64,000 nt of DNA, from contig JAPPIG010000064.1 in NCBI GenBank assembly GCA_028820635.1, positions 131,074 through 195,073 on the forward strand, in the 5' to 3' direction. The notes under the pieces were generated by a model, which had not been told where the DNA came from, made no database searches, and saw only the letters and a program-made list of their open reading frames with translations. This DNA is from Candidatus Poribacteria bacterium. Its GTDB lineage: Bacteria > Poribacteria > WGA-4E > WGA-3G. Both the position numbers and the translations under genes were made by a program. Positions 201-31,932 of this stretch are shown here, one piece after another. Each line of letters starts with the position of its first letter. Within the stretch, counting starts at the first letter, position 1.

Positions 201-1355
201 ATGAACCACAAATATCGAATTAATCCTGATTGGAAACGGCTTGCAAGTCGTATTGTGATGCCGAACCAACGTGTACTCGTCCTCGGTCCATCAGATGCCG
301 GAAAATCAACATTTTGTCGTTATCTGACTGATTATGCTTGTAAAGCGTCGTTGAAAGTTGCATTTGTTGACGCTGATGTAGGACAATCTCAAATCGGTCC
401 TCCTACCACCATCGGCATGAAACTCTTTGCACCACCACCAGACGGTACTGAACTGCATTTACCGTTCGGTGGTCACGAAAATGGCACTACTAACCAAGAA
501 AACTCTGATACGAAATCCGAACAAAATACAACAAAAAAGAAAAACCGAAGTGATGAATTATATCACAAAGCAGATGTTCTCTATTTTGTCGGAGCACTAT
601 CACCACAACGTAATCTACTTCCAATTTTAACTGGAACCAGATTAATGGTTGATGCTGGGCTGAATGCCGGTGCAGATTTCACTGTTATTGATACAACAGG
701 ATATGTTCATGACGGAGCGGCCGTGGCGTTAAAGCAGCAAAAAATTGATCTCATTCGTCCACATCATTTGGTTTGTATTGGGCGTTCTAAGGACTTGGAA
801 AGGATTGTTGCTTGTTATAACGACTTAAATTTTCTCACAATCCACTATCTACCCCCACATAAGTTGGTAAGCACAAAAAGCAGTGAAGCACGTAAGAGAA
901 ATCGAAAAGCGAAATTTGAAGCATATTTCGCAGATAGTGAACGCCAAACAGTTCCATTTGGACAAATTCGAGGCGCACGTACCTCATTTTTCAATGGCAG
1001 AATCGCAAATCAGAAGGAAATAGAAATACTCACCCGACTAACCGAAGAAGAGATAATATATGCCGAGTGGGGACATCGCTCCGTAAGCCTAATTGCGCGA
1101 AGAAACCTACCACAATCTGCCACTAAAAGTCTGAAAAACTATCTGAGTTTATCATTTGTTGTCGCGGAAACACTTGCTTACTTTGAACAACGCCTTGTGG
1201 GAATGGTTGATGAAGCAGGCAACACTATAGCAATCGGTATTATTGAAAAGATGAACTTCCAAAATCAAAACCTGAATATCCGTTGTGAACCAAGCATTGC
1301 TGCAAAAATCAAGGTCCTTCAATTTGGAAATTATAGGTATACCGAGAAACAGTGA
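201..1355 (+). CDS. Clp1/Grc3-family polynucleotide 5'-hydroxyl kinase-like P-loop protein
   Basis: Walker A LGPSDAGKST followed by VDADVGQSQIGPPTT (the Clp1 DxDxGQ-type motif). A low-complexity N/T/K-rich insertion follows. ATG at 201. Confidence 0.55.
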   Translation: MNHKYRINPDWKRLASRIVMPNQRVLVLGPSDAGKSTFCRYLTDYACKASLKVAFVDADVGQSQIGPPTTIGMKLFAPPPDGTELHLPFGGHENGTTNQENSDTKSEQNTTKKKNRSDELYHKADVLYFVGALSPQRNLLPILTGTRLMVDAGLNAGADFTVIDTTGYVHDGAAVALKQQKIDLIRPHHLVCIGRSKDLERIVACYNDLNFLTIHYLPPHKLVSTKSSEARKRNRKAKFEAYFADSERQTVPFGQIRGARTSFFNGRIANQKEIEILTRLTEEEIIYAEWGHRSVSLIARRNLPQSATKSLKNYLSLSFVVAETLAYFEQRLVGMVDEAGNTIAIGIIEKMNFQNQNLNIRCEPSIAAKIKVLQFGNYRYTEKQ

Positions 1356-1394
1356 GAAAATTTCTTAATAATTGTCTCAGAACAGAATATAAAC

Positions 1395-3254
1395 ATGAAG
1401 TTTAAGTCTTCTGGTCAAGGGACTGACTCCTTGCAACAAAAAAAACTCCTTTTCCGGTTTCTACGTTATCTTACTCCATACAAAGGTTCTATTATATTGG
1501 CGATGGTTTGTGCTTTAGTCGTTTCTATTTGCGATCTCGGACCGATTCAGATTTTAGCAGATACGCTAAATTCACTAAAACTATTAGAAGACTTTAGTCA
1601 ATCTCCCCAACCTCGTACTATCCGTTTTTTTTATATAGAGAACATTTTTGAAGGTTATGAAATTACATTAACAGATGCGGGGGATGCCATCCGTTTCTTT
1701 TTTTGGATTTTTATAGGGGCAGTCAGTCTTGTTTTTGTAAAGGGATTTTTTGTTTTTGGTAACGATTTTCTGATGGAACGTGTCGGAAATAAATTTAGCT
1801 TCCGCGTTCGAAATGACCTATATAAAAAAATTGTTTCTGCTCCTTTAGGTATCCTCTCAGAAAATCAAAGTGGCGACGTAATGACAAAAGCCACTGATGA
1901 CGTGCGAATGTTACAGCAGGCAGTCGCCGCAACCGCATCAATAATGCATGCTATTATCAAAGTTACCATTTTTCTTTCTTTCATGTTTTACAAAAATATC
2001 CAAATGACAATCTTCTCCATGTTAGTTCTTCCAATGATTGCGTATTTTATCTTACGCATAGGCACACGTGTCCGCAAAGCAAGCATGGAAATTCAACAAA
2101 GTAGCTCAGACATCTATTCACAACTTAAGGAAACGCTTGCTGGAATCAACATTATAAAAAGTTTTACCGCCGAAAAAACTGAAATGGAGAGGTTTCAAAC
2201 GGTTACATCAAGCCAATATGACTCGGCAATTCGTCGCGCAAAATTTGCATCCCTCCTTCCTCCACTTATTGAATGGATGGCAGCTATCGGAATTACAACT
2301 GTTTTAGGACTTGGTTGTTGGAACGTCATAGAAGGGAGTCTGGATATAGGCTGGTTTGTAGGTTATATTGCAATAGTCGGACTGATGTATAAACCGATTA
2401 AGACGATAGGTAGTGTCAATAATGTCTTACAACAAAGTCTTGCTTCTGCAGAACGTATTTTCCCACTGCTTGATTTTGAAAGAGAGGCTGGTAGTGAATC
2501 AGATGGAAAACGTGTACTTCCCAACGTTAGAGGAACTGTCCAATTTCAAAACGTATCGTTTGCGTATCAACAACGCCCTGTAATAAAAAATGTCAGTTTT
2601 ACGGCGGAGCCAGGGGAGATTATCGCACTTGTCGGTCCAAGCGGCAGCGGGAAGACAACACTACTCAACCTACTGCTACGATTCTATACAGTTGATAGCG
2701 GTGCGATTCTAATTGATGACTTTCCCGTTGATGAGGTCACGCTGACATCATTAAGGCAAAATATTGCCCTTGTTCCACAGGGTACGTTTCTATTTGATGG
2801 CACTGTTTTAGAAAATATCGGATACGGTTCGCCAGGAGCAACAAGAGACTCAATCATTGTGGCAGCAGAAAAAGCCAACGCTCACGGTTTTATATCTGAA
2901 ATGCCTAACAGCTACGACACACCAATAGGAGAGGCAGGTGGTAACCTCTCAGGCGGAGAACAGCAACGTATTTCTATTGCACGCGCTATTTTAAAAGATG
3001 CTCCAATTCTCATCTTAGATGAAGCAACTTCAGCTCTTGACACACAATCAGAAGCAATTATCCAAAAATCGCTGACAAATCTTATGGAGGGTAGAACCAG
3101 CTTTATTATTGCACATCGACTTTCAACAGTAATGCGTGCTGACAATATTTTGGTTATTGACGATGGTGAAATCGTGGAAAGCGGAAACCACACGAAATTA
3201 TTAGAAAAAGACGGTCTTTATAATAAACTGTGTCAACAGCAGATTTTCGGATAA
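1395..3254 (+). CDS. ABC transporter permease/ATP-binding protein (MsbA-like exporter)
   Basis: N-terminal 6-TM domain; Walker A GPSGSGKTT; ABC signature LSGGEQQRISIARAIL; Walker B ILILDEATSALD. Confidence 0.88.
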   Translation: MKFKSSGQGTDSLQQKKLLFRFLRYLTPYKGSIILAMVCALVVSICDLGPIQILADTLNSLKLLEDFSQSPQPRTIRFFYIENIFEGYEITLTDAGDAIRFFFWIFIGAVSLVFVKGFFVFGNDFLMERVGNKFSFRVRNDLYKKIVSAPLGILSENQSGDVMTKATDDVRMLQQAVAATASIMHAIIKVTIFLSFMFYKNIQMTIFSMLVLPMIAYFILRIGTRVRKASMEIQQSSSDIYSQLKETLAGINIIKSFTAEKTEMERFQTVTSSQYDSAIRRAKFASLLPPLIEWMAAIGITTVLGLGCWNVIEGSLDIGWFVGYIAIVGLMYKPIKTIGSVNNVLQQSLASAERIFPLLDFEREAGSESDGKRVLPNVRGTVQFQNVSFAYQQRPVIKNVSFTAEPGEIIALVGPSGSGKTTLLNLLLRFYTVDSGAILIDDFPVDEVTLTSLRQNIALVPQGTFLFDGTVLENIGYGSPGATRDSIIVAAEKANAHGFISEMPNSYDTPIGEAGGNLSGGEQQRISIARAILKDAPILILDEATSALDTQSEAIIQKSLTNLMEGRTSFIIAHRLSTVMRADNILVIDDGEIVESGNHTKLLEKDGLYNKLCQQQIFG

Positions 3255-19954: not shown

Positions 19955-20983
19955 TTATTTTGCCTTTATTTCGTCCCAGGCGCGGCTGTATTGTTGTGTA
20001 AATTCACCTTGATCTTTCAACCATTCAAGTGATTCCATAACTTTTGCTGGGGGATAGATGAATTTATGCTTCTGCAGATCTTCTGGTAAGTGTTCCTTCG
20101 CAGCTGGCACACAAGTGCCATATTTCGTAAAAGTCGTAATTTTGGCATTGACCTCTGGACGAAGGAGATAATTGATAAACTTTTCGGCGAGATCTTTATG
20201 AGGAGCGGATTTTGGAATACAGACAGTGTCAATAAATTGGCTTGATCCTTCTTTTGGAATAATATAGCGGATAGAAGGACGTTCCTCTGCAGCGCGAAAC
20301 GCGTCGCCACTCCAGCAATGCGCCATAATGACATCACCCGCAATAAGCAACTCTTCAGCTTCGCTCTTGTATTGTTTAACGAATGGTTTCTGTTCAATTA
20401 GTTTCTCTTTTGCTTGCCTCAGTTGTTCAGGATCGGTTGTATTGATGCTATATCCGAGAAGTTTAAAGGCGGCGCCAAGTGTCTCACGTTGGTCATCAAG
20501 CATACTGAATTGATTTTTATATTTTTCATTCCAGAGCACTGCCCAACTTTCAGGATCAGGTGAAACCTTAGATGAATCGTAGGCGATACCTGCAGTGCCG
20601 AAGGTATATGGCACAGAATAGCGGTTTTCTGGATCGTAGTACTTACCGAGAAAAAGTGGACTGATGTTCTGAAAGTTAGGAATGTTGTCACGATTTAGTT
20701 CTGCTAACAGATTTTCCTTTACCATGATAGAAACCATATAATCTGACGGCATAATGATGTCATAACCTGTAGCCCCAACCGATATTTTAGCGAGCAGATC
20801 TTCGTTGGAACCGTAAGTATCTACAACGACATTCACACCGAATTCTTCCTCAAATCCTGACCGAATCTCGTCACTTACGTATTCTGACCAAGTAAAAATG
20901 TTTAGTTGATTCTTCTGATCGACGCAACCACACATAAAAATGGTGAGAAAGAGAAATCCCAAGAGGATGTGTCTTTTTGACAT
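19955..20983 (-). CDS. ABC transporter periplasmic substrate-binding lipoprotein (PotD/PotF-like polyamine-binding family)
   Basis: Start trimmed to MSKRHILLGFLFLTIFMCGC (lipobox). The fold-level sequence pattern is typical of SBP_bac_1/8. Confidence 0.7.
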   Translation of the reverse strand: MSKRHILLGFLFLTIFMCGCVDQKNQLNIFTWSEYVSDEIRSGFEEEFGVNVVVDTYGSNEDLLAKISVGATGYDIIMPSDYMVSIMVKENLLAELNRDNIPNFQNISPLFLGKYYDPENRYSVPYTFGTAGIAYDSSKVSPDPESWAVLWNEKYKNQFSMLDDQRETLGAAFKLLGYSINTTDPEQLRQAKEKLIEQKPFVKQYKSEAEELLIAGDVIMAHCWSGDAFRAAEERPSIRYIIPKEGSSQFIDTVCIPKSAPHKDLAEKFINYLLRPEVNAKITTFTKYGTCVPAAKEHLPEDLQKHKFIYPPAKVMESLEWLKDQGEFTQQYSRAWDEIKAK

Positions 20984-21147
20984 ATCCTGCAAACTGAAAC
21001 GATTTATAGAAAAATGTAGCATATTTTCCTCCATTCGTATCTGTTTTTGTGTTGAAGGCGAATACGTTGCCAAACGAATAGCCTTAACTACAAGAAACTC
21101 AGAAATTGACAAGGTATACTAATTATGCTAACTTAATACGTGATGGT

Positions 21148-21528
21148 TTATTGATTGGATTTTTCAGTCTCCAGACCCGCTGCTTTCCAACCTCGGAATC
21201 CGCCAGTTAAGACTGAAACATTCTCATAACCCATATTTTTTAATGTGTGTGCCGACAGCGTTGCTCGAGTGCCACCACCACAATAAGTAACAATATGTGT
21301 ATCCTCATCAGGAGCGACCTCATCAATATCAAGTTCAAGATAACCGCGCGGGAGTGAAACAGCATTTGGTAAATGTTCTTCGTCGTAGTCCGGTTCGTCA
21401 CGAACATCTAATAGGATTACAGAATCACCTGCTTCTGTAAGTTCATCCGGTGAAATATGTCCGACATTCGCCTTTGCTTCAGCGACAAGTTCTTTTAGGG
21501 TTTTCAATGGCATAGTTATTCTCCGCAA
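21148..21528 (-). CDS. single-domain rhodanese-like sulfurtransferase
   Basis: ILLDVRDEPDYDEEHLPNAVSLP...TYCGGGTRATLSAHTLKNMGYENVSVLTGGFRGW (active-site Cys loop). Confidence 0.8.
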   Translation of the reverse strand: MRRITMPLKTLKELVAEAKANVGHISPDELTEAGDSVILLDVRDEPDYDEEHLPNAVSLPRGYLELDIDEVAPDEDTHIVTYCGGGTRATLSAHTLKNMGYENVSVLTGGFRGWKAAGLETEKSNQ

Positions 21529-21655
21529 GCGTTAAGATATTATTTATGTTAATCAGAATATGGCGTTTTAAATACTAAACCTATATGGAAAGAATATATC
21601 ATAAAGTGCCAGAACCGTCAATTTTTTTTCTGTTATCAAATTTGAAGGAGAACAA

Positions 21656-22099
21656 ATGGAATTAATAAAAAAATCAGTTGATTCCGTAATCGAGAAAGAT
21701 CGGATTGGGAGTCCTGTGTTTCTAAGATGTGTGCTTAATATTGCAGGTGAGACATCTAATCTGCTGCAACCAACCGCAGAGATGGCTGCACTCTCAAACG
21801 GATGGATACCATCCCAGCCGCAAAGTCTTTATGCACAAGGTGATGCAAACGCAACACAGGTTACGGTAATGATACAATACGTAGGAGGACAGATGGCGGT
21901 GCTGAGTATCAATCGGGTTGATACTGAAACTGCTATTGACATTATGTTGGTTGGCAATAAAGGTGTGATCTACCATGAAACACCAATAGGTAGGCATTAT
22001 CTAAGTGCTACACCGCATCAACTCAGTGCTATAGGAGAACTTACGGAGACTATCTCCAACGCACTTGCAACTGGTCAACCGATAACGGTGGAGGGATAA
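21656..22099 (+). CDS. hypothetical protein resembling a free-standing Gfo/Idh/MocA C-terminal domain
   Basis: 147 aa. Ends 2 nt before the start of the next Gfo/Idh/MocA gene, suggesting translational coupling. Confidence 0.4.
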   Translation: MELIKKSVDSVIEKDRIGSPVFLRCVLNIAGETSNLLQPTAEMAALSNGWIPSQPQSLYAQGDANATQVTVMIQYVGGQMAVLSINRVDTETAIDIMLVGNKGVIYHETPIGRHYLSATPHQLSAIGELTETISNALATGQPITVEG

Positions 22100-22101
22100 A
22101 C

Positions 22102-23250
22102 ATGCAAAAAAACGGAAAATACGGTGTCCTACTCCTCGGTGGACATCGCACACATCAAGAAAATTATGCACAATCGTTTGCCAACGATCGCCGTTGTCAA
22201 CTTGTTGCATTTGCTGATGAACCAGATGCACCTGAAGAACGAATAAAATTGGCACGTTCCCTCGCTGAAGAATTAAATCTCCCTTTCATTCCCGACCTTG
22301 ATGAGGCATTGGCGCGCGATGATGTGCATATTGTAAGTCTCTGCACAGAGGTTGAAAGACGTGGTCGTGTTGGAACGAAATGTGCAGAAGCAGGAAAGCA
22401 CGTCTACCTTGACAAGCCAATGGCACTCAATCCTGAAGATACGAACAAGATTGTTGACGCTGTTACCAAAAGCGGTGTTCGGACACAGATGTTTAGTAAC
22501 ATTTATAGCACTTGGGCGCGAACTGTCAAACAAGGATTGGACAGTGGACACATCGGTAAACTAAAGGCAATTCATTGCGATGTCATGTTTGCTAAAGGAC
22601 ACCCGGGAACTGCACCTGTCGGGAAAAAACGGATACAAAAACCGAATTTAGAACGGTATAGTTTCGTGGAAGCAAAACCTGAAATGTTTGACATCGGTGT
22701 TTATGCCGTGTCAATGGTGAATTGGTTAACACAGAAACGCGTGAAAAATGTATTTGGTGGAACAGCAAATTACTTTTTTAAAGAACATCACGGCTGCGAT
22801 TTAGAAGATTTTGGCGCGTTGGTGCTAACATTAGAAGGCGATGTTACCGCAACGATTGCTGCTGGACGTTACGGTTGGCAGAGTCATGCGCAAGGAGGTA
22901 TACGAAAGGTTCACCTTGTTGGCACTGATGCTACGTTAACTTTTGATGCTTCATCAAACAGGTTAGAAGTGTTCACTGCAGAGCCTACATTTGAACCACC
23001 GACACCGCACCCGCTTGACCCGATGGGAATGTGGAGCAGCACACAAGCAGAAATTAAGATGCAACCGAAGCAGCACTGGATTGATGTCGGCAGTGGAAAT
23101 GATGGACAGAACGAATTCGGTGCATTTATAGATTGTATTGAAAATGGAGTGGAAAGTGAGATGAACGCAGAATTTGCTGCACATTCTGTTGAAGTTATTT
23201 GTGCTGGCTATCGTTCTGCCGCAAGTGGAGAGGTTATTAAATTTGGATGA
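22102..23250 (+). CDS. Gfo/Idh/MocA family oxidoreductase
   Basis: N-terminal Rossmann GVLLLGGHRTH...AFAD...E(K)P. Confidence 0.8.
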   Translation: MQKNGKYGVLLLGGHRTHQENYAQSFANDRRCQLVAFADEPDAPEERIKLARSLAEELNLPFIPDLDEALARDDVHIVSLCTEVERRGRVGTKCAEAGKHVYLDKPMALNPEDTNKIVDAVTKSGVRTQMFSNIYSTWARTVKQGLDSGHIGKLKAIHCDVMFAKGHPGTAPVGKKRIQKPNLERYSFVEAKPEMFDIGVYAVSMVNWLTQKRVKNVFGGTANYFFKEHHGCDLEDFGALVLTLEGDVTATIAAGRYGWQSHAQGGIRKVHLVGTDATLTFDASSNRLEVFTAEPTFEPPTPHPLDPMGMWSSTQAEIKMQPKQHWIDVGSGNDGQNEFGAFIDCIENGVESEMNAEFAAHSVEVICAGYRSAASGEVIKFG

Positions 23251-24163: not shown

Positions 24164-25972
24164 TTATCCGACAATACCCATCGCTTCAAGTTCGGCAATC
24201 TGTTTCAGCCATGATTCACGAATTTCAGGGGAGTAATCACCCGGGAGTAAGGATTTGCGGGTACAATTCAAGAACGCTTGCAAGGTTTGATAACGCCGAA
24301 TTGGACCGATATTTGGTAGAATTCTATCGGATATAACGTCAACGATTTCGTCTACAGACAACTCTCCTTCGCGGTTTTTGGCAGCTTGAAGGTCAGCACG
24401 GAGTGATGCAAAACTGGCAGCCGAATACCCTTCAGTCAGCGACAGCAGGAGTTTAAATGCCTCATCCGGAATTTCGCCTCTGAAAATATTGCTAAGCGTC
24501 CAGTGTAGAAATGTCTCTCGGTCTTCACCTGTTGGATCGAGAACTGGAATTACGATGTCTCCAACTCTGCCTTCTCTGCGCAGGTCGGGCGAGAGATTAT
24601 AGATACGCGCTGTCATAAGCAGCCATGTGATATTGCCGCGTAACTGCGGGTCGGACATCATAGCCTGTATTTTTCCTGTAAGCCTGCGCTCAGTTGCGTG
24701 TGCATCTCTACCAACATCCCCGAACTGTGTATCCGCTTCGTCAACAAAAATTAACACATTCACCAATGCCATCAACAAACGTCTGAGCCGTTCAAAGATC
24801 ACATCTGTCTGTCCAAACCACATGCTGCGGATATTCTTGAGTACTAATACAGGTATATCCAATTCTCCTGCGAGTCCTTCAAAGATAAAGGTTTTTCCGC
24901 TACCGATGGGTCCGCATACACTCAATCCAGCGATGGAATCTTTTCCTGTAGATGTAATGCGAGGAATTATCTGTGTCTTCAAGAAGTCAACCAGTTTTTG
25001 ATTGCCGACAATATCTTTGAGAGAATGTGCAGGTTTTTTGAATTCGACGACATCTTCCCCCAACTGTGCTTGGATAAATTCAGATACTTTTTCTATTACG
25101 TTGTCTGGACGCAGTTTTTCTCCTGAATAACAAGCTGAGACAAGCAGCTGGCGTAAAGCTTGGATTGATAATCCCGCTGTTAACACGGCGAGTTGTGATT
25201 GGCTACCCCATAGATTTAACTCCTTTTTTGCAGGTTTTTGGGTTCTATTGAACCATGATATAAAATGTCTTCGTGCTTCTACTTGGGGAGATTGAATTTC
25301 TACATCTATGACTTGGGGCAAGCGGGTAACGCGTGAGTTTATTAGGCTTTTTGATTCGGCAATGAAAACAACCGTATCGGTAGCTTTCATGAAATCGGAA
25401 TCAGAAATCCAATCCTGCACGATGCTAACTCTATGTCTATCTGCTAAACTTAAACTTCGGATTTCTCCTTCAGGGAGTAACATATCCGTTGCTTCAATAA
25501 AAATAAGGAGTTTTTCCTGCAAAAACTTTTCTCCGCGAACATTCGTAGATCGCGAAATAAGACAGAATTGTCGCAGCAGTTCAAGTGCCAATGTCGGGCT
25601 TCCGATAGCATCGTTTAGGTATTGTTCAAACAAGTCGTTAGACGCATTTGAGGATTTACTTGTTTTGAGTTCAGGGTCTTCCGCCTTGTTCGGAAGCGCG
25701 AAAAGACTGGTAGTGTTTTTCTGTGAAGGTTCGCTCTCCCCCCGCCATAGGTTGAAAGCGTTTTTTACCTTTTCTCGGTCGCTTGCATGCAGAAAACGGA
25801 GCGGACCATTGAGTTCGTATACTATGAGGATAAAACCCGAAATATCCCAGCTTCGCGTAAGAAACGGAACGAGGGGAATGTAATCCTCCTCATCTGATTC
25901 TTCAACGAAAAAGAGGTCGTGGATATTCCCATGAAGGACGATACTGCGCGAGGTGCCAGAATTAATAAGCAA
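24164..25972 (-). CDS. classical-clade AAA ATPase with ~330-aa uncharacterised N-terminal region
   Basis: Walker A GPIGSGKT; Walker B LIFVDEAD; sensor-1/SRH TARIYNLSPDLRREGRVGD (matches TNRPDxLDPALLRPGRFD of the FtsH/Vps4/katanin clade). A single AAA module sits at the C-terminus. Confidence 0.85.
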   Translation of the reverse strand: MLINSGTSRSIVLHGNIHDLFFVEESDEEDYIPLVPFLTRSWDISGFILIVYELNGPLRFLHASDREKVKNAFNLWRGESEPSQKNTTSLFALPNKAEDPELKTSKSSNASNDLFEQYLNDAIGSPTLALELLRQFCLISRSTNVRGEKFLQEKLLIFIEATDMLLPEGEIRSLSLADRHRVSIVQDWISDSDFMKATDTVVFIAESKSLINSRVTRLPQVIDVEIQSPQVEARRHFISWFNRTQKPAKKELNLWGSQSQLAVLTAGLSIQALRQLLVSACYSGEKLRPDNVIEKVSEFIQAQLGEDVVEFKKPAHSLKDIVGNQKLVDFLKTQIIPRITSTGKDSIAGLSVCGPIGSGKTFIFEGLAGELDIPVLVLKNIRSMWFGQTDVIFERLRRLLMALVNVLIFVDEADTQFGDVGRDAHATERRLTGKIQAMMSDPQLRGNITWLLMTARIYNLSPDLRREGRVGDIVIPVLDPTGEDRETFLHWTLSNIFRGEIPDEAFKLLLSLTEGYSAASFASLRADLQAAKNREGELSVDEIVDVISDRILPNIGPIRRYQTLQAFLNCTRKSLLPGDYSPEIRESWLKQIAELEAMGIVG

Positions 25973-26059
25973 CCCAGCTTCTGTACGGAATTTGTAAGTA
26001 GGGTCTTTAACAGCGATGTTTATACCCTCCGTTCATTGACTGTGGCAAATTGACTAACA

Positions 26060-27883
26060 TTAACTTGCCTGTGCCAACTTTTTCCATCGTGGAAGAAAAC
26101 CTTCAGTCAAGAACTGGTCAAGGTTCCAGATATTCCTTTGCGGTTCTACTTCAAAAAATGTTCCCATTGCCAAAACAAGAATGTCTTTAAAACCATAATT
26201 TGTCTCAATTTGTGAGAGTGTTTCATAAGTTTGGAGAAATGCGGTGTGAATTCGGAGAAAGTTTAGCGCAGCAAAACTAAACGCATTGAGCTTCAGGCAA
26301 TCATCATTTGTTTTCTCCCAAAACCATTCCGGTTTGTAAAAAAGGTCGAGTCGTTCTTTGCAAAGCTGCACCGCTTTTTCAAGGACATCATCTAATTCTT
26401 GGCGATTCATCTCTTTATCTGGAATATCAAGTTTTTCACAAACCTCAGCATGTATTCGGTGTTTTGCTTCATCAGAATCCACCCACGTTTGAAACGCTTC
26501 AGAGGCTCGTTCGAAACAATTGCGAAGATCTGCAATTGTCAAATCAAGTTTGCTCGGAAAAGCCTTAAGTAGAGAAGAACTCGGCAAAAGATCTGCTTGC
26601 TCAGGATGTAGTTGTAAGAATTTATATTCTACGACATCTGCTAACATCTCTGCCAGAATAGGTGTAAAAGCGATGATAGATCGCTCATAAAGCTCAGCAT
26701 CAATGAATTCCGTCAGTTTTTCCGCATCAAGCTGAATTTCCCCGGTTTTCGTTTTAACAAATGCTTCGGCAAATGTAGTCTGTTCACCTAAAACTGAGGC
26801 AGATTCTGTTAAAGATAATGGTCGATTAAAGAGTGATAATTCGGTATACAGGTCCTCAAAGTCAAGCAAACTCTCTTGCCACTGGTGTCCCCATGTATCA
26901 TGAATCAGATATTTATCAAGTTCTTCCAATGGGAGAACACCAACCATTCGTGTGAGCGTAGTCGTAACCAATTCAACAGACAGTGCAGTATCTTTGGCAA
27001 TTTGTTCTCGGAACTTTAAATCTAAATTTTCTGCATTAAAAGTGCCAAAAACAGGAAAATGTGCAAACGGTTCAACCTGCCAAATTTTTCGCAAAAATTG
27101 CGCATAACTAAATTTCTTACCAGATTGTTTTTTACGGTATCTATCTGTTGCCGTGGGTATTTTTTCACTGTGTGTATTGGCAGGAGTTTCCTTTATTTTA
27201 GAAGGCAGACAGAAATAGAGAGCAGAACAGGTTTTTATCAATCGGACTTCGCCAACTTCAAAGGGCGCGTCCGGATATAAACACTGAAAGAGGTTGAGAA
27301 TGTCAGTATCCAGTTGTGGATTATCGGACACTAAATTAAAGCGATTCTGTAAACACTGCATGATTTGATGTCGGTGCATCAGAGGGGCAGTTCGAATAGC
27401 GAGGTTTCTCGTTAGTTTGTCTAATGCTTTTGAATCTACATGGAATATATCTTGGAGCAGTGCCTTCATGTCTTGCTGTTCTGATTCTTCTGTAGGGGCA
27501 TCTGCTGTAAATTGCGTAAAAATTTTAGAGCCTGCAGTGTCGAGGTTTTCAATATTGGGATGGTTGACAATTGCGGGATACTGGTCAAGGGATAACCAAA
27601 TTGCTTCGATAAAAATATTATCCAAAACACTGAATGACGTATTTATTGAATCGTTTTGTTTAGATGAATGGGATATTTTGTCTGTTTCCAATACTAACGT
27701 ATTATGCAGATCAAAAAACTTTTCAAGCGTTTCAGTTGAAACTGGACCACTCTTTTTGGTATTGTTAATTTTATTTACGTGGGTTTCAAAATCCTTTAAA
27801 CCTTCCAAGATAATTTCCCAATTGCTCGGCGTATTATCCTGATGCCACGTGTTGACGTTCACAACCCCCTCCTCTCTTTCCAC
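26060..27883 (-). CDS. hypothetical 607-aa protein, no recognisable domain, directly upstream and co-oriented with the AAA ATPase
   Basis: Long uninterrupted ORF; 87-bp gap to the AAA gene. No motifs I can assign. Confidence 0.6.
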   Translation of the reverse strand: MEREEGVVNVNTWHQDNTPSNWEIILEGLKDFETHVNKINNTKKSGPVSTETLEKFFDLHNTLVLETDKISHSSKQNDSINTSFSVLDNIFIEAIWLSLDQYPAIVNHPNIENLDTAGSKIFTQFTADAPTEESEQQDMKALLQDIFHVDSKALDKLTRNLAIRTAPLMHRHQIMQCLQNRFNLVSDNPQLDTDILNLFQCLYPDAPFEVGEVRLIKTCSALYFCLPSKIKETPANTHSEKIPTATDRYRKKQSGKKFSYAQFLRKIWQVEPFAHFPVFGTFNAENLDLKFREQIAKDTALSVELVTTTLTRMVGVLPLEELDKYLIHDTWGHQWQESLLDFEDLYTELSLFNRPLSLTESASVLGEQTTFAEAFVKTKTGEIQLDAEKLTEFIDAELYERSIIAFTPILAEMLADVVEYKFLQLHPEQADLLPSSSLLKAFPSKLDLTIADLRNCFERASEAFQTWVDSDEAKHRIHAEVCEKLDIPDKEMNRQELDDVLEKAVQLCKERLDLFYKPEWFWEKTNDDCLKLNAFSFAALNFLRIHTAFLQTYETLSQIETNYGFKDILVLAMGTFFEVEPQRNIWNLDQFLTEGFLPRWKKLAQAS

Positions 27884-28073
27884 TTACCTTCTGTAGAATG
27901 CAGACATCTATGCTTTACATTCAGGGTGAAATACAAAAATTTATAACACCTGCTGGTTGGCGCGCTTACAAAGCGAGCCAACTAACGGTGTATCATAATT
28001 GAAAATTTACAATAATCACAATTGACAAAAAGCACAAAGCCAACGAACCTTCGTTAATCCGCGATGAGTGTCT

Positions 28074-28910
28074 TTATAACGGTAGTTCAGAATCACTCTC
28101 TTTCTTTTCTTCGGGCTCATCGGTTTTCTCAGGGGTATCTGTTTGTTGTGCTCCGAAGATTAAGGAATCAAATTCATCAGAAGCAGCGCTGGAACTTGCA
28201 GCGGCAAGAAATTCTTCCTCTTCAGAACGTGAATCAGTGCCAGCGAGTTCTTGTGCAACCGCCGATCTACCCTTTGCTTTCTCACGGATTTCTCGCATCC
28301 GTGTCAATTCCGCTGAAGTGCCATCCGTACTAATACCTGATAGCAAATCCGCGACATCTTCTTGCTCACGTGCTGTAATAAGATCGGCAACCGCTTCAGA
28401 TTGCTCAGTTTTGATCTTATCAAGATCGCGGTGGAGACCGGTAATCTGAAGTTTATGGGTTTCAATGTCTTCCTGCGCGCGTTCAATATCCTGCTCAAGT
28501 TCATCAATGCGCGCGTTTTTCTCATCCAGAGTGGAGTGAAAATCGTTATAAGAGGTAACACATCGGACGTAGTCAGGATGCTGTTTTATCTCCTCATCTG
28601 GTGTGCCAGCTTTTTGAAGGTCAGCGGCAGTGCTTTTTGCCTTAGCGATTGCACCTGCCTTCATCTTTTCAAGTTTGTCAATGTCATCTGTCAGAGCCTT
28701 CAGTGAATTCTTCTTATTTTCAACAAGTGCGATGAGTTGCCCAATCGCATTCTTGTAACGTTGGATATTTCCCTGTTTGTCACGGATAATGTCCTCATAA
28801 GCACCGCGAACCGCTTCAGGGTTTTCCATTAGTTTATCAGCCTGCTCGTGTGCACGACCAGTAAGTGTATACCAAATTGCTTTGAAAAAACGGGTGAAGC
28901 CGTTTGCCAT
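28074..28910 (-). CDS. PspA/IM30 (Vipp1/LiaH) family protein, copy 1
   Basis: N-terminus MANGFTRFFKAIWYTLTGRAHEQADKLMENPEAVRGAYEDIIRDKQG fits the PspA helix a0/a1. Coiled-coil throughout; acidic E/S-rich C-terminal tail. Confidence 0.75.
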   Translation of the reverse strand: MANGFTRFFKAIWYTLTGRAHEQADKLMENPEAVRGAYEDIIRDKQGNIQRYKNAIGQLIALVENKKNSLKALTDDIDKLEKMKAGAIAKAKSTAADLQKAGTPDEEIKQHPDYVRCVTSYNDFHSTLDEKNARIDELEQDIERAQEDIETHKLQITGLHRDLDKIKTEQSEAVADLITAREQEDVADLLSGISTDGTSAELTRMREIREKAKGRSAVAQELAGTDSRSEEEEFLAAASSSAASDEFDSLIFGAQQTDTPEKTDEPEEKKESDSELPL

Positions 28911-28959
28911 TAGTAATTCCTCCTATGTGAAATTAAGTTTTATTCAAATTCTATTCTGT

Positions 28960-29649
28960 TTAAGTATCATCCTCTCTGATACCTGATAACAGATCATCAA
29001 CCTCTTGTTGTGTGCGTGCGGCAATAAGATCGGCAACCGCTTCAGATTGCTCCGTCTTAACCTTCTCCAGATCACGATGGAGACTGGTTATCTGAAGTTT
29101 ATGGGTTTCAATGTCTTGTTGCGCGCGTTCAATATCTTGCTCAAGTTTAGCGATGCGGGCGTTTTTCTGCTCCAAAGTGGAGTGGAAATCGTTGTAAGAT
29201 GCAACACATCGGACATAACTTGGGTGCTGTTCAATCTCCTCGTCAGAAGTTCCTTCTTTTTTAAGTTCAGTGATAATACCTTCCTTCTTCTCGATTGCAT
29301 CAGCCTTCATCTTTTCAAGTTTGTCAATATCATCTGTCAAACTCTTCAGCGAATTTTTCTTATTTTCAACAAGTGCGATGAGTTGCCCAATCGCATTCTT
29401 GTAACGTTGGATATTTCCCTGCTTGTCACGAATGATGTCTTCATAAGCACCACGTACCGCTTCAGGGCTTTCAATGAGGCTATCGGTCTGTTTATCGTAT
29501 TGGATATTTTCTTGCGTGTCACTTATATCGTCTTCAGAAGGCTCGTATATCGGTTCAGAGCTTTCCTTGAGTCTATCTGCTTGTTCAAGTGCACGACCAA
29601 TTTGCGTATACCAGACAGCCTTGTATAAACGGATGAAGCCATTTTCCAT
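28960..29649 (-). CDS. PspA/IM30 family protein, copy 2
   Basis: Near-identical core to copy 1 (ESPEAVRGAYEDIIRDKQGNIQRYKNAIGQLIALVENKKNSLK), with a ~30-aa insertion near the N-terminus. Confidence 0.75.
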   Translation of the reverse strand: MENGFIRLYKAVWYTQIGRALEQADRLKESSEPIYEPSEDDISDTQENIQYDKQTDSLIESPEAVRGAYEDIIRDKQGNIQRYKNAIGQLIALVENKKNSLKSLTDDIDKLEKMKADAIEKKEGIITELKKEGTSDEEIEQHPSYVRCVASYNDFHSTLEQKNARIAKLEQDIERAQQDIETHKLQITSLHRDLEKVKTEQSEAVADLIAARTQQEVDDLLSGIREDDT

Positions 29650-29733
29650 TGGAATTCCTCCTAAGTAAAATTAAGTTTTTTTAAATCTATACCTAAATTT
29701 TACAAGAATTATAATAGTAAAACAATATTGTAT

Positions 29734-30309
29734 TTATCCATTATGAGTAGATGAAAATGCTGACTTCAGTTTTGGCATAAAATGCGTAAAAAATTTGACT
29801 GCTTGTTCATCTTGATGGTTAGGTGAAAATTTGTGTCTTCCCATACATCTTCTTGTATATGAGAGCGAAAGATATCCACAAGTTTGTGAACCAATTGCCA
29901 TCATACCACCAATCGCAACAAGTCCAAAACCGTATATGCCCGAAATAGCAATAACTCCCCAAGCTTGTGTGCCACCGATAGCAATAACTCCCCATGAAAT
30001 TCCACCTCCGATGGCAATTACCCCAATTGACATTAAACCACCGATAGCAATAAAACCGCAAGCAAGCCCACCACCAATAGCAATAGCTCCATTTGCGAAA
30101 AGTCCCGCAATGACAATCTCTCCAGTAGAAACAAAGTCTGAAACCATGTCTGGCGAGGCAATTGAAGATTCAAACAATCGCACCATCTTATCCAGATTTA
30201 ATGCGAGAATAAAACACAGTGAAACGGCCCAAAAAATACCCCACTTCCAATAATAAGATCGAAATGCTTTTTTGAATTTTTCAGGTACAAAAGCTTCAGT
30301 CATTTTCAC
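29734..30309 (-). CDS. membrane protein with six tandem 11-aa GxIAIGG (glycine-zipper-like) repeats
   Basis: TM helix followed by GAIAIGGGLAC-GFIAIGGLMSI-GVIAIGGGISW-GVIAIGGTQAW-GVIAISGIYGF-GLVAIGGMMAIG. Underlying DNA has 33-bp periodicity. Sits between pspA copies. Confidence 0.6.
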   Translation of the reverse strand: MKMTEAFVPEKFKKAFRSYYWKWGIFWAVSLCFILALNLDKMVRLFESSIASPDMVSDFVSTGEIVIAGLFANGAIAIGGGLACGFIAIGGLMSIGVIAIGGGISWGVIAIGGTQAWGVIAISGIYGFGLVAIGGMMAIGSQTCGYLSLSYTRRCMGRHKFSPNHQDEQAVKFFTHFMPKLKSAFSSTHNG

Positions 30310-30469
30310 ATTCTTCAGATTTTTGAGTTAGTGCCAAGTATAATTATTGCAAGCAATAGATTATTGGAGTTGTCTTCTTTTTGTAGACACTGTTTTCGAG
30401 TAATGTTATAGATTGATTAGGAGTACGAATTCTTGCTGCAACTACTTCTATTTTTTGTCTCCATCCATA

Positions 30470-31085
30470 TTTGATTCTTCATTAACATCTTCAGTCTCTT
30501 TCTGCCGAATTTCTTCTTGTATCTTTGTCAATTCCATTGAAATATCATTCTTACTAATACCTGATACCGTATCACTGATTTCCTTTGTTCACGTGCAGCG
30601 ATCATATCAGCAACCGCGTCAGATTACTGTGTCTTGAGCTTATCCAATTCACGATGGAGAGTGGTTATCTGAAGTTTATGGGTTTCAATGTCTTCTTGCG
30701 CGCGTTCAATATCCTGTTCAAGTTTAGCTACACGAGCATTTTTCTCTTCCAATGTGGTGTGGTAATCATTATAAGAAGTAATATGTCGGACATAGTCTGG
30801 ATGCTGTTTGATTTCCTCAGCTGATGCACCTGAATCTCGTAGTTCAGCGGCTGTGTTTTTCGACTTTGTGATGGCACCTGCCTTCATCTTTTCAAGTTTG
30901 TCAATGTCATCTGTGAGACCCTTCAGAGAATTTTTCTTGTTTTCTATAAGCGCGATCGACTGCCCGATCACATTTTTGTAACGTTGGATATCTTCCCGTT
31001 TAACGCGGATTTTGAAATAACGAGCAATACTGTTTGCCATTGGAAAATCTCCTGAGAGTGAGATAAAATTTGCTACAATTAACAA
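30470..31085 (-). pseudogene. decaying third PspA/IM30 paralog
   Basis: The N-terminus lacks the conserved EQADKL...AVRGAYEDII block. In-frame CAA>TAA nonsense at ~30624, followed by a frameshifted C-terminal tail that is still DNA-homologous to copies 1 and 2. Confidence 0.55.
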
Positions 31086-31086
31086 G

Positions 31087-31932
31087 TTATTGAAGTTTAC
31101 CTTCTTCTGTAGGTTCTACTTTCGGGTGTGTCGTTATAGCATGGGTGTCTTCTAATGAATTGCTCGTTTGCCCTATCTCTTTATCAATATTTGGGGTAAA
31201 TTCTCTTATCTGTTCATCAACTTTCTTCGCAAAAGCAAGGCTTTCGTCAAGTTCCGTGCGAAGTCGTGAGAGTTCAGTCTCATTACTTTCAGGACTAAGC
31301 GTCAGCACACGAGCATAAAGATGTGAAAGTTGAACAATTGTTTGTTGAACATCTGCTATTTGTTGTTCTCTATGTTCCTTTAGAACTCTTTTAACAGTTG
31401 CCAATTGAGAATCTCTTGATTTCTCGTGCATCTTCAACGTGTCTTTCAAACACTGAACAGCTTGTGTAAAGAGTTCGGTCACTTTACCAGTAATTTCTGC
31501 ACTTACCGTAATAGGGAGGGTCGCCATCCAACCAGCGTCTCGCGCTTCCTCCTGAAAAGATTGATGCAAGGCGCGAAGTTCCTCCAGCATCTGCTCTGTT
31601 CTTTTGTCGCCATCCTTTTTTAACTGTTCATGCAACGCGTTCAGTTCTTGTTCCTGTTTCTGTTGTGCTTCATAGAGTATTTCTTCATGAACGCGTTTTG
31701 CGATGTCGTCCGTGCCGGTTGTCCACTTTGTAATCAGCGCACCAATAGGAAGACCGATACCGATAACCGCGCTTGCGAATAAGTAAAGAATCTTTGGTTC
31801 TAAATTAAACACCCATGACGCGAAAACGCCAAGCGCACCCGCCGCAAATGGATAAATGACGTAAGGGTTACTAATGAGATGGAGTAAGAATTTCTCTCGA
31901 AACAATTTCCTATCAATCAACGTTTTCCCCAA
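31087..31932 (-). CDS. two-TM membrane-anchored coiled-coil protein, first gene of the pspA cluster
   Basis: Hydrophobic segments at ~res 20-43 and 48-68, then a long heptad-rich coiled coil (EEILYEAQQKQEQELNALHEQLKK...). Only a 1-nt gap to the pspA3 remnant. Confidence 0.6.
   Translation of the reverse strand: MGKTLIDRKLFREKFLLHLISNPYVIYPFAAGALGVFASWVFNLEPKILYLFASAVIGIGLPIGALITKWTTGTDDIAKRVHEEILYEAQQKQEQELNALHEQLKKDGDKRTEQMLEELRALHQSFQEEARDAGWMATLPITVSAEITGKVTELFTQAVQCLKDTLKMHEKSRDSQLATVKRVLKEHREQQIADVQQTIVQLSHLYARVLTLSPESNETELSRLRTELDESLAFAKKVDEQIREFTPNIDKEIGQTSNSLEDTHAITTHPKVEPTEEGKLQ

Follow-up and report, generated by a model that had tools for sequence, protein, structure and literature searches.

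A protein family of about 600 residues encoded with a two-transmembrane coiled-coil partner and with PspA, AAA ATPase or periplasmic OmpA/VWA genes in Poribacteria

The 64,000-nucleotide stretch of Candidatus Poribacteria DNA analysed here (contig JAPPIG010000064.1, positions 131,074 to 195,073; hereafter the window) contains on its minus strand an uninterrupted open reading frame (ORF) at 26060..27883, of 607 codons plus stop, which is the subject of this report and is referred to as the target. A preliminary description of this DNA had regarded the product as an orphan protein, placed its gene in a two-gene operon with the AAA ATPase gene that follows it, and considered it a candidate adaptor or substrate of that ATPase. 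As judged from sequence comparison, the target is the founding member of an undescribed protein family, and its constant partner is not the AAA ATPase but a two-transmembrane (2-TM) coiled-coil protein, encoded in the window by orf281.

Genes of the locus

The order of transcription is orf281, orf153, orf191, PspA2, PspA1, target and AAA, the target being the sixth of seven genes. Lengths are given in amino acids (aa) and nucleotides (nt).

31087..31932, minus strand: orf281, two TM helices at the N-terminus, then a cytoplasmic coiled coil of ~200 aa
30624..31085, minus strand: orf153, truncated PspA copy, 77% identical to PspA1 residues 42-169
29734..30309, minus strand: orf191, glycine-rich repetitive membrane protein (GGLACGFIAIGGLMSIGVIAIGGGISWGVIAIGG...), inside the PspA array
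28960..29649, minus strand: PspA2, tandem paralogue of 229 aa, 68% identical to PspA1, without the C-terminal tail
28074..28910, minus strand: PspA1, full-length PspA/IM30 protein (ESCRT-III superfamily) of 278 aa, PspA_IM30 E 2.5e-8, above the gathering score
27946..28021, minus strand: element conserved in the PspA1-target spacer, with a promoter-like TTGTGA-18-TATGAT (28021..27992) and then a 19-pair hairpin (27991..27946)
26060..27862, minus strand: target coding sequence, 600 aa from GTG 27862 (longest ORF to 27883, 607 aa)
24164..26017, minus strand: Cdc48/p97-like classical AAA ATPase with an active C-terminal domain and an N-terminal half that resembles a degenerate AAA domain

The start codon of the target is probably the second in-frame GTG, at 27862, since a GGAGG sequence lies 5 nt upstream of it and most homologues are about 600 aa long and begin there with Met (alignment position 8); the upstream in-frame GTG is not kept in L004 and L005. 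The ratio of nonsynonymous to synonymous substitution rates (dN/dS) is 0.08-0.15 against seven relatives, at dS values of 0.23 to 1.8, and this ratio, together with full-length homologues in several phyla, establishes the uninterrupted frame as a real gene under strong purifying selection, in agreement with the preliminary description. The product is soluble, acidic (pI 4.9) and mostly helical, and neither a signal peptide nor a hydrophobic or TM segment was found in it, in keeping with a place in the cytoplasm.

The AAA gene indeed lies on the same strand and directly downstream in transcription. Its product matches PF00004 (E 8.8e-14, residues 352-472); Walker A reads GPIGSGKT and Walker B LIFVDEAD, and the N-terminal half is devoid of Walker A/B motifs ('VLHGNIHDLF'). 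Among proteins of solved structure it comes nearest to Cdc48/VAT/p97 domains (1e-18 to 1e-15); spastin follows at 1e-7. The ORF as listed starts at TTG 25972, from which the 87-bp gap of the preliminary description follows. Upstream of the first canonical start, however, the peptide IA[VI]KDPTYKFRTEAG is conserved, with synonymous changes, and the frame starts at an ATC, ATT or ATA codon (26017..26015 in the window) 7 nt after a GGAGGG Shine-Dalgarno sequence (L001-L005, L009, L012, L079), being closed in the window by a TGA just upstream of the ATC codon. Because the frame is conserved as protein upstream of TTG 25972, as far as the codon after GGAGGG, the gene probably starts at the non-canonical ATC 26017, and the gap is then 42 nt. 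Public annotations of the gene give 602, 617 or 630 aa. A non-canonical start might keep the ratio of AAA to target protein low.

The spacer between PspA1 and the target measures 190 nt, and its conservation in close relatives is nearly at the level of coding sequence. One pair of the hairpin occurs in three forms (C-G, U-A, A-U) across these relatives, and L004 carries an insertion of ~200 nt just downstream of the conserved element. Rfam gave no match, neither for the whole window nor for the conserved intergenic region. The element could be an internal promoter with a structure in the 5'-untranslated region, or an attenuator that separates expression of PspA from that of target and AAA. Promoter and terminator scans over the operon did not rise above shuffled expectation.

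The tandem PspA array (28074..31085) indicates recent and ongoing PspA gene duplication and decay in this clade; L079 has four PspA copies or fragments. Its interposed gene, orf191, was found in 3 of 72 related loci and matches no family; it is lineage-specific and probably not a core part. PspA1 carries an acidic C-terminal tail (28074..28200) with the sequence DEFDSLIFG, which is absent from the truncated paralogues. A planctomycete PspA (L073, 9505..10341), 42% identical to PspA1, conserves the tail motif as DEFDRLIGL, and the motif could be a MIM-like docking site for the AAA ATPase or the target. The target itself has no PspA or Snf7 match in Pfam scans that included 71 family members.

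The protein family and its predicted fold

The term orphan, in the sense of a protein lacking homologues, proved wrong. Homologues of the target fall into 186 clusters at 90% identity, full length and at least 60% identical among the matches listed, and an exhaustive profile search of 1.84 billion representatives returned 224 clusters (50% identity) at E <= 1e-3, with 135 clusters at E <= 1e-30 and lengths mostly of 550-610 aa. All close homologues come from Candidatus Poribacteria, and the family as a whole extends to Planctomycetota/Planctomycetaceae, Cyanobacteria and unassigned metagenome lineages. Every named member is labelled 'hypothetical protein', and none of the 186 clusters carries a Pfam annotation.

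That no motif can be assigned, as the preliminary description had stated, holds after database searches. The best Pfam match of the window protein is TerB at a sub-threshold E of 0.057, and NCBIfam gave none. When 71 diverse members (18-64% identical to the window protein) were compared with Pfam and NCBIfam at E <= 1, no recurrent family appeared: any one family was matched by at most 2 of the 71, with best E values of 0.019 (Pfam) and 0.0012 (NCBIfam), all sub-threshold. Profile searches of PDB sequences with the full-length and the core-only target came back empty, and PADLOC gave no match to the target and only weak coiled-coil or P-loop noise for its neighbours. Homology to an unrelated housekeeping enzyme, which the preliminary description had named as the result that would contradict it, was not encountered. 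In Ravi et al. 2024 and the other literature searched we found no definition of a family of ~600 aa like this one, and the literature on Poribacteria and PspA yielded nothing.

Several assignments were considered and rejected. TerB kinship is put down to chance, the match being sub-threshold in the window protein, found once in an unrelated C-terminal extension of P0188, and non-recurrent in the 71 members. Domain fusions gave no clue to function, as nine longer family members were scanned and no informative extra domain was seen. No P-loop or Walker A motif occurs in 109 members, so that the target is not taken as a nucleoside triphosphatase, and with PADLOC negative it is not taken as a component of a defence system.

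AlphaFold2 gave a model with pLDDT 72 from a shallow alignment and, from a 71-sequence alignment, one with pLDDT 92.5 and pTM 0.92, all five models of the latter run exceeding 91 pLDDT. The predicted fold consists mostly of helices with few short beta elements. The remote homology search that the preliminary description had proposed, run with Foldseek on this model, gave no neighbour in PDB (350,542 chains; best E 0.14, none below 0.1, TM-scores <= 0.12) or in BFVD (best E 0.018, TM 0.11), and the modelled fold therefore appears to have no solved or viral relative in these two collections. A likeness to alpha-pore-forming toxins (XaxA/YaxA/ClyA) and to angiotensin-converting enzyme (ACE), seen with the first, lower-quality model, was gone or insignificant with the model of pLDDT 92.5.

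Members of the family are only 18-64% identical, yet they share 10 invariant and 11 near-invariant positions. In the 71-sequence set the invariant residues (numbered here and below in the 607-aa form) are F276, P277, H328, G332, H333, E412, E419, S437, D447 and D452. Across 109 full-length members, identity of at least 85% is found at F276, P277, F279, H328, D329, W331, G332, H333, W335, Q336, R401, E412, A415, D416, E419, S436, S437, K445, D447, D452, W586 and D589. Two motifs stand out, H-D-x-W-G-H-x-W-Q, present in 109 of 109 members, and E-x-x-A-D-x-x-E, present in 105 of 109 and located 63-92 residues after HDxWGH. In the secondary structure of the model the first lies on helix 319-339 and the second on helix 387-425, with a spacing that puts the residues of each on one helix face; S436 and S437 are in the loop after helix 387-425, and K445, D447 and D452 are at the start of the next helix.

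The invariant residues are retained also in lineages without AAA or PspA genes nearby, which argues for an intrinsic catalytic or ligand/metal-binding site and not for a docking surface specific to one partner. The HDxWGH, ExxAD, SS, D and D residues thus suggest a putative catalytic or metal-binding site, and a protein that is not a passive adaptor.

Conserved neighbourhoods

The Poribacteria sample consisted of 72 species-level loci, 52 of which have full 8-kb flanks. Among the 72, the target is adjoined by an AAA orthologue in 35, by PspA in 32 and by orf281 in 66, and in every one of the 52 fully flanked loci an orf281 homologue lies next to the target. The 52 loci fall into three arrangements:

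25/52 loci: orf281-PspA-target-AAA, without OmpA/VWA genes (first type, that of the window)
26/52 loci: SBP-OmpA/VWA/OmpA-orf281-target, without PspA/AAA genes (second type; SBP, solute-binding protein)
1/52 loci: all genes together (L070)

Genomes of the second type still encode the AAA ATPase, at 75-77% identity. In both that were checked (L158, L159) the AAA gene comes directly after PspA at a locus syntenic to the window, while the target lies elsewhere with the SBP-OmpA/VWA genes. The genes after PspA-AAA in these genomes encode a GFO/IDH/MocA oxidoreductase, a rhodanese and an SBP, and the window flank at 19955..23250, with a PotD-like SBP, a rhodanese, a 147-aa ORF and a GFO/IDH/MocA oxidoreductase, is syntenic with them. 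Since these flanking genes are syntenic in genomes that have the target elsewhere, the locus is taken as the ancestral home of PspA-AAA in Poribacteria. A 605-aa gene after AAA in L158 was considered as a target paralogue and turned out to encode a TPR protein. Conversely, the one first-type genome checked has an SBP-OmpA/VWA/OmpA/DUF4159 module elsewhere on the chromosome, and an OmpA-like gene is indicated in a second such genome. Both modules are fused in L070 and L083, which are deep-branching relatives. With orf281 constant while the modules switch, anchor and target behave as a single unit, encoded in some genomes with one module and in others with the other.

The periplasmic module comprises SBP(NMT1/PBPb)-OmpA, VWA, a second SBP-OmpA and DUF4159 genes (L053 1655..7094; L160 4005..9551; L073 2894..7456). 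Its SBP-OmpA family counts 813 matches, with Verrucomicrobia, Planctomycetota and Deltaproteobacteria among the carriers. The NCBI label is 'phosphate ABC transporter substrate-binding/OmpA family protein', and the function of the family seems uncharacterised.

For the wider family, grouping of 80 metagenomic loci and the references at 45% identity yielded 25 lineages. The target has SBP-OmpA genes as neighbours in 9 of these lineages, VWA in 4, PspA in 4 and AAA in 3, with at least one of them in 9 of the 25. A planctomycete locus (L073) shows the target, PBPb, VWA and OmpA genes, an orf281 homologue (31% identity), an inserted gene and PspA. Its contig ends just after PspA, and the gene after PspA, considered as AAA, encodes an SBP lipoprotein. 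The cyanobacterial L074 has the order PspA-OmpA-target, and in high-GC soil lineage 0 (L124, L129, L142) AAA precedes the target, in reversed order relative to the window and with 4-nt stop/start overlaps. In L147, AAA and PspA are divergent from genes for an OmpA-like protein, an ABC ATPase, a 2-TM helical protein and the target. Directly upstream of the target, lineages 2, 11 and 14 encode a protein with two TM helices and a helical cytoplasmic domain of 260-320 aa, of no detectable similarity to orf281. One protein of this kind, c40, was compared with orf281 by hhalign and rejected as a homologue (probability 1%), the match being one of architecture. Finally, L156 has a bona fide TelA (1243..2406, toxic anion resistance, E 4.5e-69) between a 2-TM coiled-coil gene and the target homologue; as this TelA holds the slot that PspA fills in Poribacteria, TelA and PspA appear to be interchangeable in the cassette.

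Other genes recur beside the target as well. In three lineages (L098 69..1028, L102 7405..8238, L105 2315..3151) the target homologue overlaps at its start with a gene for a PrmA-like S-adenosylmethionine (SAM) methyltransferase, and in cyanobacteria it overlaps at its stop with a 2-oxoglutarate (2OG)-Fe(II) oxygenase gene (2OG-FeII_Oxy_5; L074 9802..10515). Both neighbours are enzymes that modify proteins or small molecules, and they may point to a modification step that involves the target family. RND pumps are encoded near the target in three lineages, and a Ser/Thr kinase gene is a neighbour in lineage 9.

Of the two-gene operon proposed in the preliminary description, the linkage stands, in that AAA adjoins the target in almost half of the Poribacteria loci and reversed, overlapping pairs exist in an unrelated high-GC lineage. 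Its restriction to two genes does not: the target is one of seven same-strand genes in the window locus, AAA is not adjacent in 26 of the 52 fully flanked loci, many lineages have the target standing alone, and the gene that stays is orf281.

A proposed role and its relation to known systems

In the VWA proteins of the periplasmic module a signal peptide is combined with a C-terminal TM anchor and an intact MIDAS motif (DASGS), so that these proteins face the periplasm. The SBP-OmpA proteins are membrane-anchored, periplasmic and peptidoglycan-binding. PspA and the AAA ATPase are cytoplasmic, and the 2-TM anchor is the sole obvious membrane-embedded element encoded with the target. We propose that the target and its orf281 anchor are the accessory unit of a two-part envelope-maintenance system, in which a Cdc48-like double-AAA ATPase and a cytoplasmic polymer of ESCRT-III-like PspA would make up one part, and a peptidoglycan-tethered periplasmic set of SBP-OmpA and VWA proteins the other. 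Recruited by the orf281 anchor, the target would reach the cytoplasmic membrane at its inner face, and there the His/Asp/Glu/Ser cluster of the target (HDxWGH, ExxADxxE, then SS...K.D....D) may bind a metal or small ligand for a catalytic or sensing step, to which the assembly of PspA on the membrane and its remodelling by the AAA ATPase would be coupled. That the target is a membrane-recruited cytoplasmic subunit with a catalytic or metal/ligand site, working alongside PspA and AAA in a two-module envelope system, is a reading that we hold with as much doubt as confidence.

Several points, among them the promoter and terminator scans that stayed at chance level, weigh against this proposal. 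We infer the physical pairing of target and anchor, the membrane recruitment, the metal binding or catalysis and the coupling to PspA and AAA from sequence and synteny, and the spatial clustering of the invariant residues from nothing more than helix periodicity in the model. Anchor equivalence across lineages is one of architecture, since orf281 lacks similarity to the analogous anchors, and orf281 is not a divergent PspA/Snf7 protein either (hhalign against the PspA family, probability 2.3%). Usable flanks (at least 3 kb) are available in only 14 of the 25 lineages. In several lineages (e.g. L076, L077, L113-115, L146) the system genes are absent within 8-9 kb of the target, and such lineages imply that members of the family can act in trans or without the system.

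The idea of the preliminary description, that the target is a non-enzymatic adaptor or substrate of the AAA ATPase, would have it link PspA polymers or other clients to the unfoldase, in the manner of the MIT/MIM adaptors of Vps4 and the UBX or Ufd1-Npl4 cofactors of Cdc48. The AAA-target adjacency in 35 of 72 Poribacteria loci and the reversed but overlapping pairs of lineage 0 speak for it, as does the Cdc48-like nature of the ATPase, a class that uses large cofactors, the target being large, helical and acidic. The linkage to AAA is thereby supported; the adaptor function fares less well, because in half of the Poribacteria species PspA and AAA are paired with no target gene between them, an AAA gene is missing from the surroundings in many lineages, and the invariant residues are small polar or catalytic-type ones (H, D, E, S) that are kept in AAA-less and PspA-less contexts. 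Moreover, the AAA ATPase is at least 74% identical (best 120 clusters) where the target is at least 60% identical among the matches listed, and this greater conservation disfavours tight AAA-target co-evolution. We consider the adaptor or substrate role unlikely. At the other extreme, the two-module proposal may be set aside altogether and the target taken as an enzyme or binding protein unrelated to PspA, AAA, OmpA and VWA, clustered with them by shared regulation or by chance in a few clades. The several lineages in which the target stands alone would fit, and so would the SAM methyltransferase, 2OG-Fe(II) oxygenase and RND pump genes as other recurrent neighbours. Such an account, which we judge quite improbable, has to contend with an association that recurs in at least three phyla in different gene orders and with translational coupling, with a pair that relocates between exactly two modules found fused in L070, L083 and L147, and with TelA substituting for PspA in the same slot.

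A more specific possibility concerns the invariant motifs. Gluzincins and the M49 peptidase dipeptidyl peptidase III (DPP III) are characterised by HExxH/HExxGH (HExxxH in M49), with the catalytic Glu on the active-site helix, together with a third ligand Glu on a downstream helix, often in the context ExxxD. In 105-109 of the 109 members of the target family, HDxxGH lies on a helix after a beta-strand and ExxAD (E412 to D416) comes at a distance of 63-92 residues, on a long helix, so that at the level of motifs the target could pass for a very divergent zincin-like metallopeptidase and, with the AAA ATPase and the 2-TM protein paralleling the three parts of FtsH (2 TM, AAA, M41), for a split ATP-dependent membrane protease. 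The likeness is one of analogy only, comprising a 2-TM element, a classical AAA domain and a helical HxxxGH...ExxAD domain; the three parts are separate genes here, and similarity in sequence, profile or fold is lacking. The catalytic Glu is replaced by Asp in 108 of 109 members and HExxH occurs nowhere in the family. None of the 71 members scanned matches a peptidase Pfam model at E <= 1, the core profile finds no zincin in PDB, hhalign gives probabilities of 0.07% with E. coli FtsH and 0.15% with oligopeptidase A (PrlC), and Foldseek returns only ACE (E 0.15-2.5, TM ~0.1). We regard a zincin as very unlikely.

The significance of the locus type lies in what it places together. Since 2021 PspA and Vipp1 have counted as ESCRT-III proteins of bacteria, and the question on which the locus type bears is how PspA polymers are recruited, regulated and disassembled in bacteria without Vps4. 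It sets PspA beside a Cdc48-like AAA ATPase and two conserved uncharacterised proteins, a pair that links also to a periplasmic SBP-OmpA/VWA complex, and it adds a protein family and a predicted fold that are missing from Pfam and PDB. With over 200 sequence clusters, candidate active-site residues that are invariant, and a confident model that lacks a structural neighbour, the family offers a testable set of parts. If the invariant cluster were catalytic, the family would represent a new class of enzymes, linked to upkeep of the envelope in Poribacteria, which are sponge symbionts, Planctomycetota and Cyanobacteria. The strongest version, with a new fold and enzyme class in an anchor-tethered regulatory or catalytic subunit that couples a Cdc48-like AAA unfoldase, PspA polymers and a peptidoglycan-anchored periplasmic complex into a complete bacterial ESCRT-III/Vps4-type counterpart made of parts unrelated to the archaeal and eukaryotic accessory proteins, strikes us as improbable.

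Among known systems, the FtsZl1 'membrane remodelling' operons contain VWA, OmpA-like, Ser/Thr kinase and GTPase genes (Makarova & Koonin, Biol Direct 2010, PMC2875224), FtsZl1 itself being defined by an N-terminal FtsZ-like GTPase domain, a GGGTG(S/T)G loop, a length of ~1000 aa and a central coiled coil (PMC2875224). The loci described here resemble them in that, in Planctomycetes and Cyanobacteria, VWA and OmpA-family genes and sometimes a Ser/Thr kinase gene accompany the gene of a large cytoplasmic protein, partly alpha-helical and of unknown function. The target is nonetheless not FtsZl1, for GGGTG(S/T)G is found in 0 of 109 members, there is no FtsZ-like N-terminal domain, and the length is ~600 against ~1000 aa; no FtsZl1 gene was found in 90 loci. 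With archaeal and eukaryotic ESCRT-III and Vps4 (CdvB/CdvC) the locus shares a gene for an ESCRT-III-superfamily polymer beside a classical-clade AAA gene, plus a non-homologous accessory protein and a membrane-targeting factor. It differs in that the AAA ATPase is nearest to Cdc48/VAT/p97 and not to Vps4, with no MIT domain detected, and in that the target has no similarity, in Pfam and Foldseek searches, to the ESCRT-III recruiters CdvA, ESCRT-II (winged helix) and ALIX/Bro1. According to a 2025 review a Vps4-like ATPase 'appears absent in bacteria'.

The closest relation is to the operon class of Ravi et al. 2024, in which PspA, inactive-AAA/AAA and PBPb-OmpA genes occur with 'other alpha-helical proteins' and for which ATP-dependent membrane remodelling was proposed. 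The window locus belongs to this class by its PspA/IM30 gene beside an inactive and an active classical AAA domain in one protein. The extended features, SBP-OmpA genes and a membrane-anchored helical protein, are found with PspA in loci of relatives (L070, L083, L147 and L073, with AAA also in all but L073; an ABC ATPase gene in some, such as L147), and genomes of the window type have the SBP-OmpA/VWA module at another locus. Undescribed there are the ~600-aa family with its motifs and fold, the obligate partnership with a 2-TM coiled-coil protein and the switching between modules; the anchor, a candidate counterpart of the 'TM+Snf7' protein of that class, is not detectably Snf7- or PspA-like, and the VWA and DUF4159 genes are additional. 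The type of system is thus already known from comparative genomics, and the protein family and its fold are new to it.

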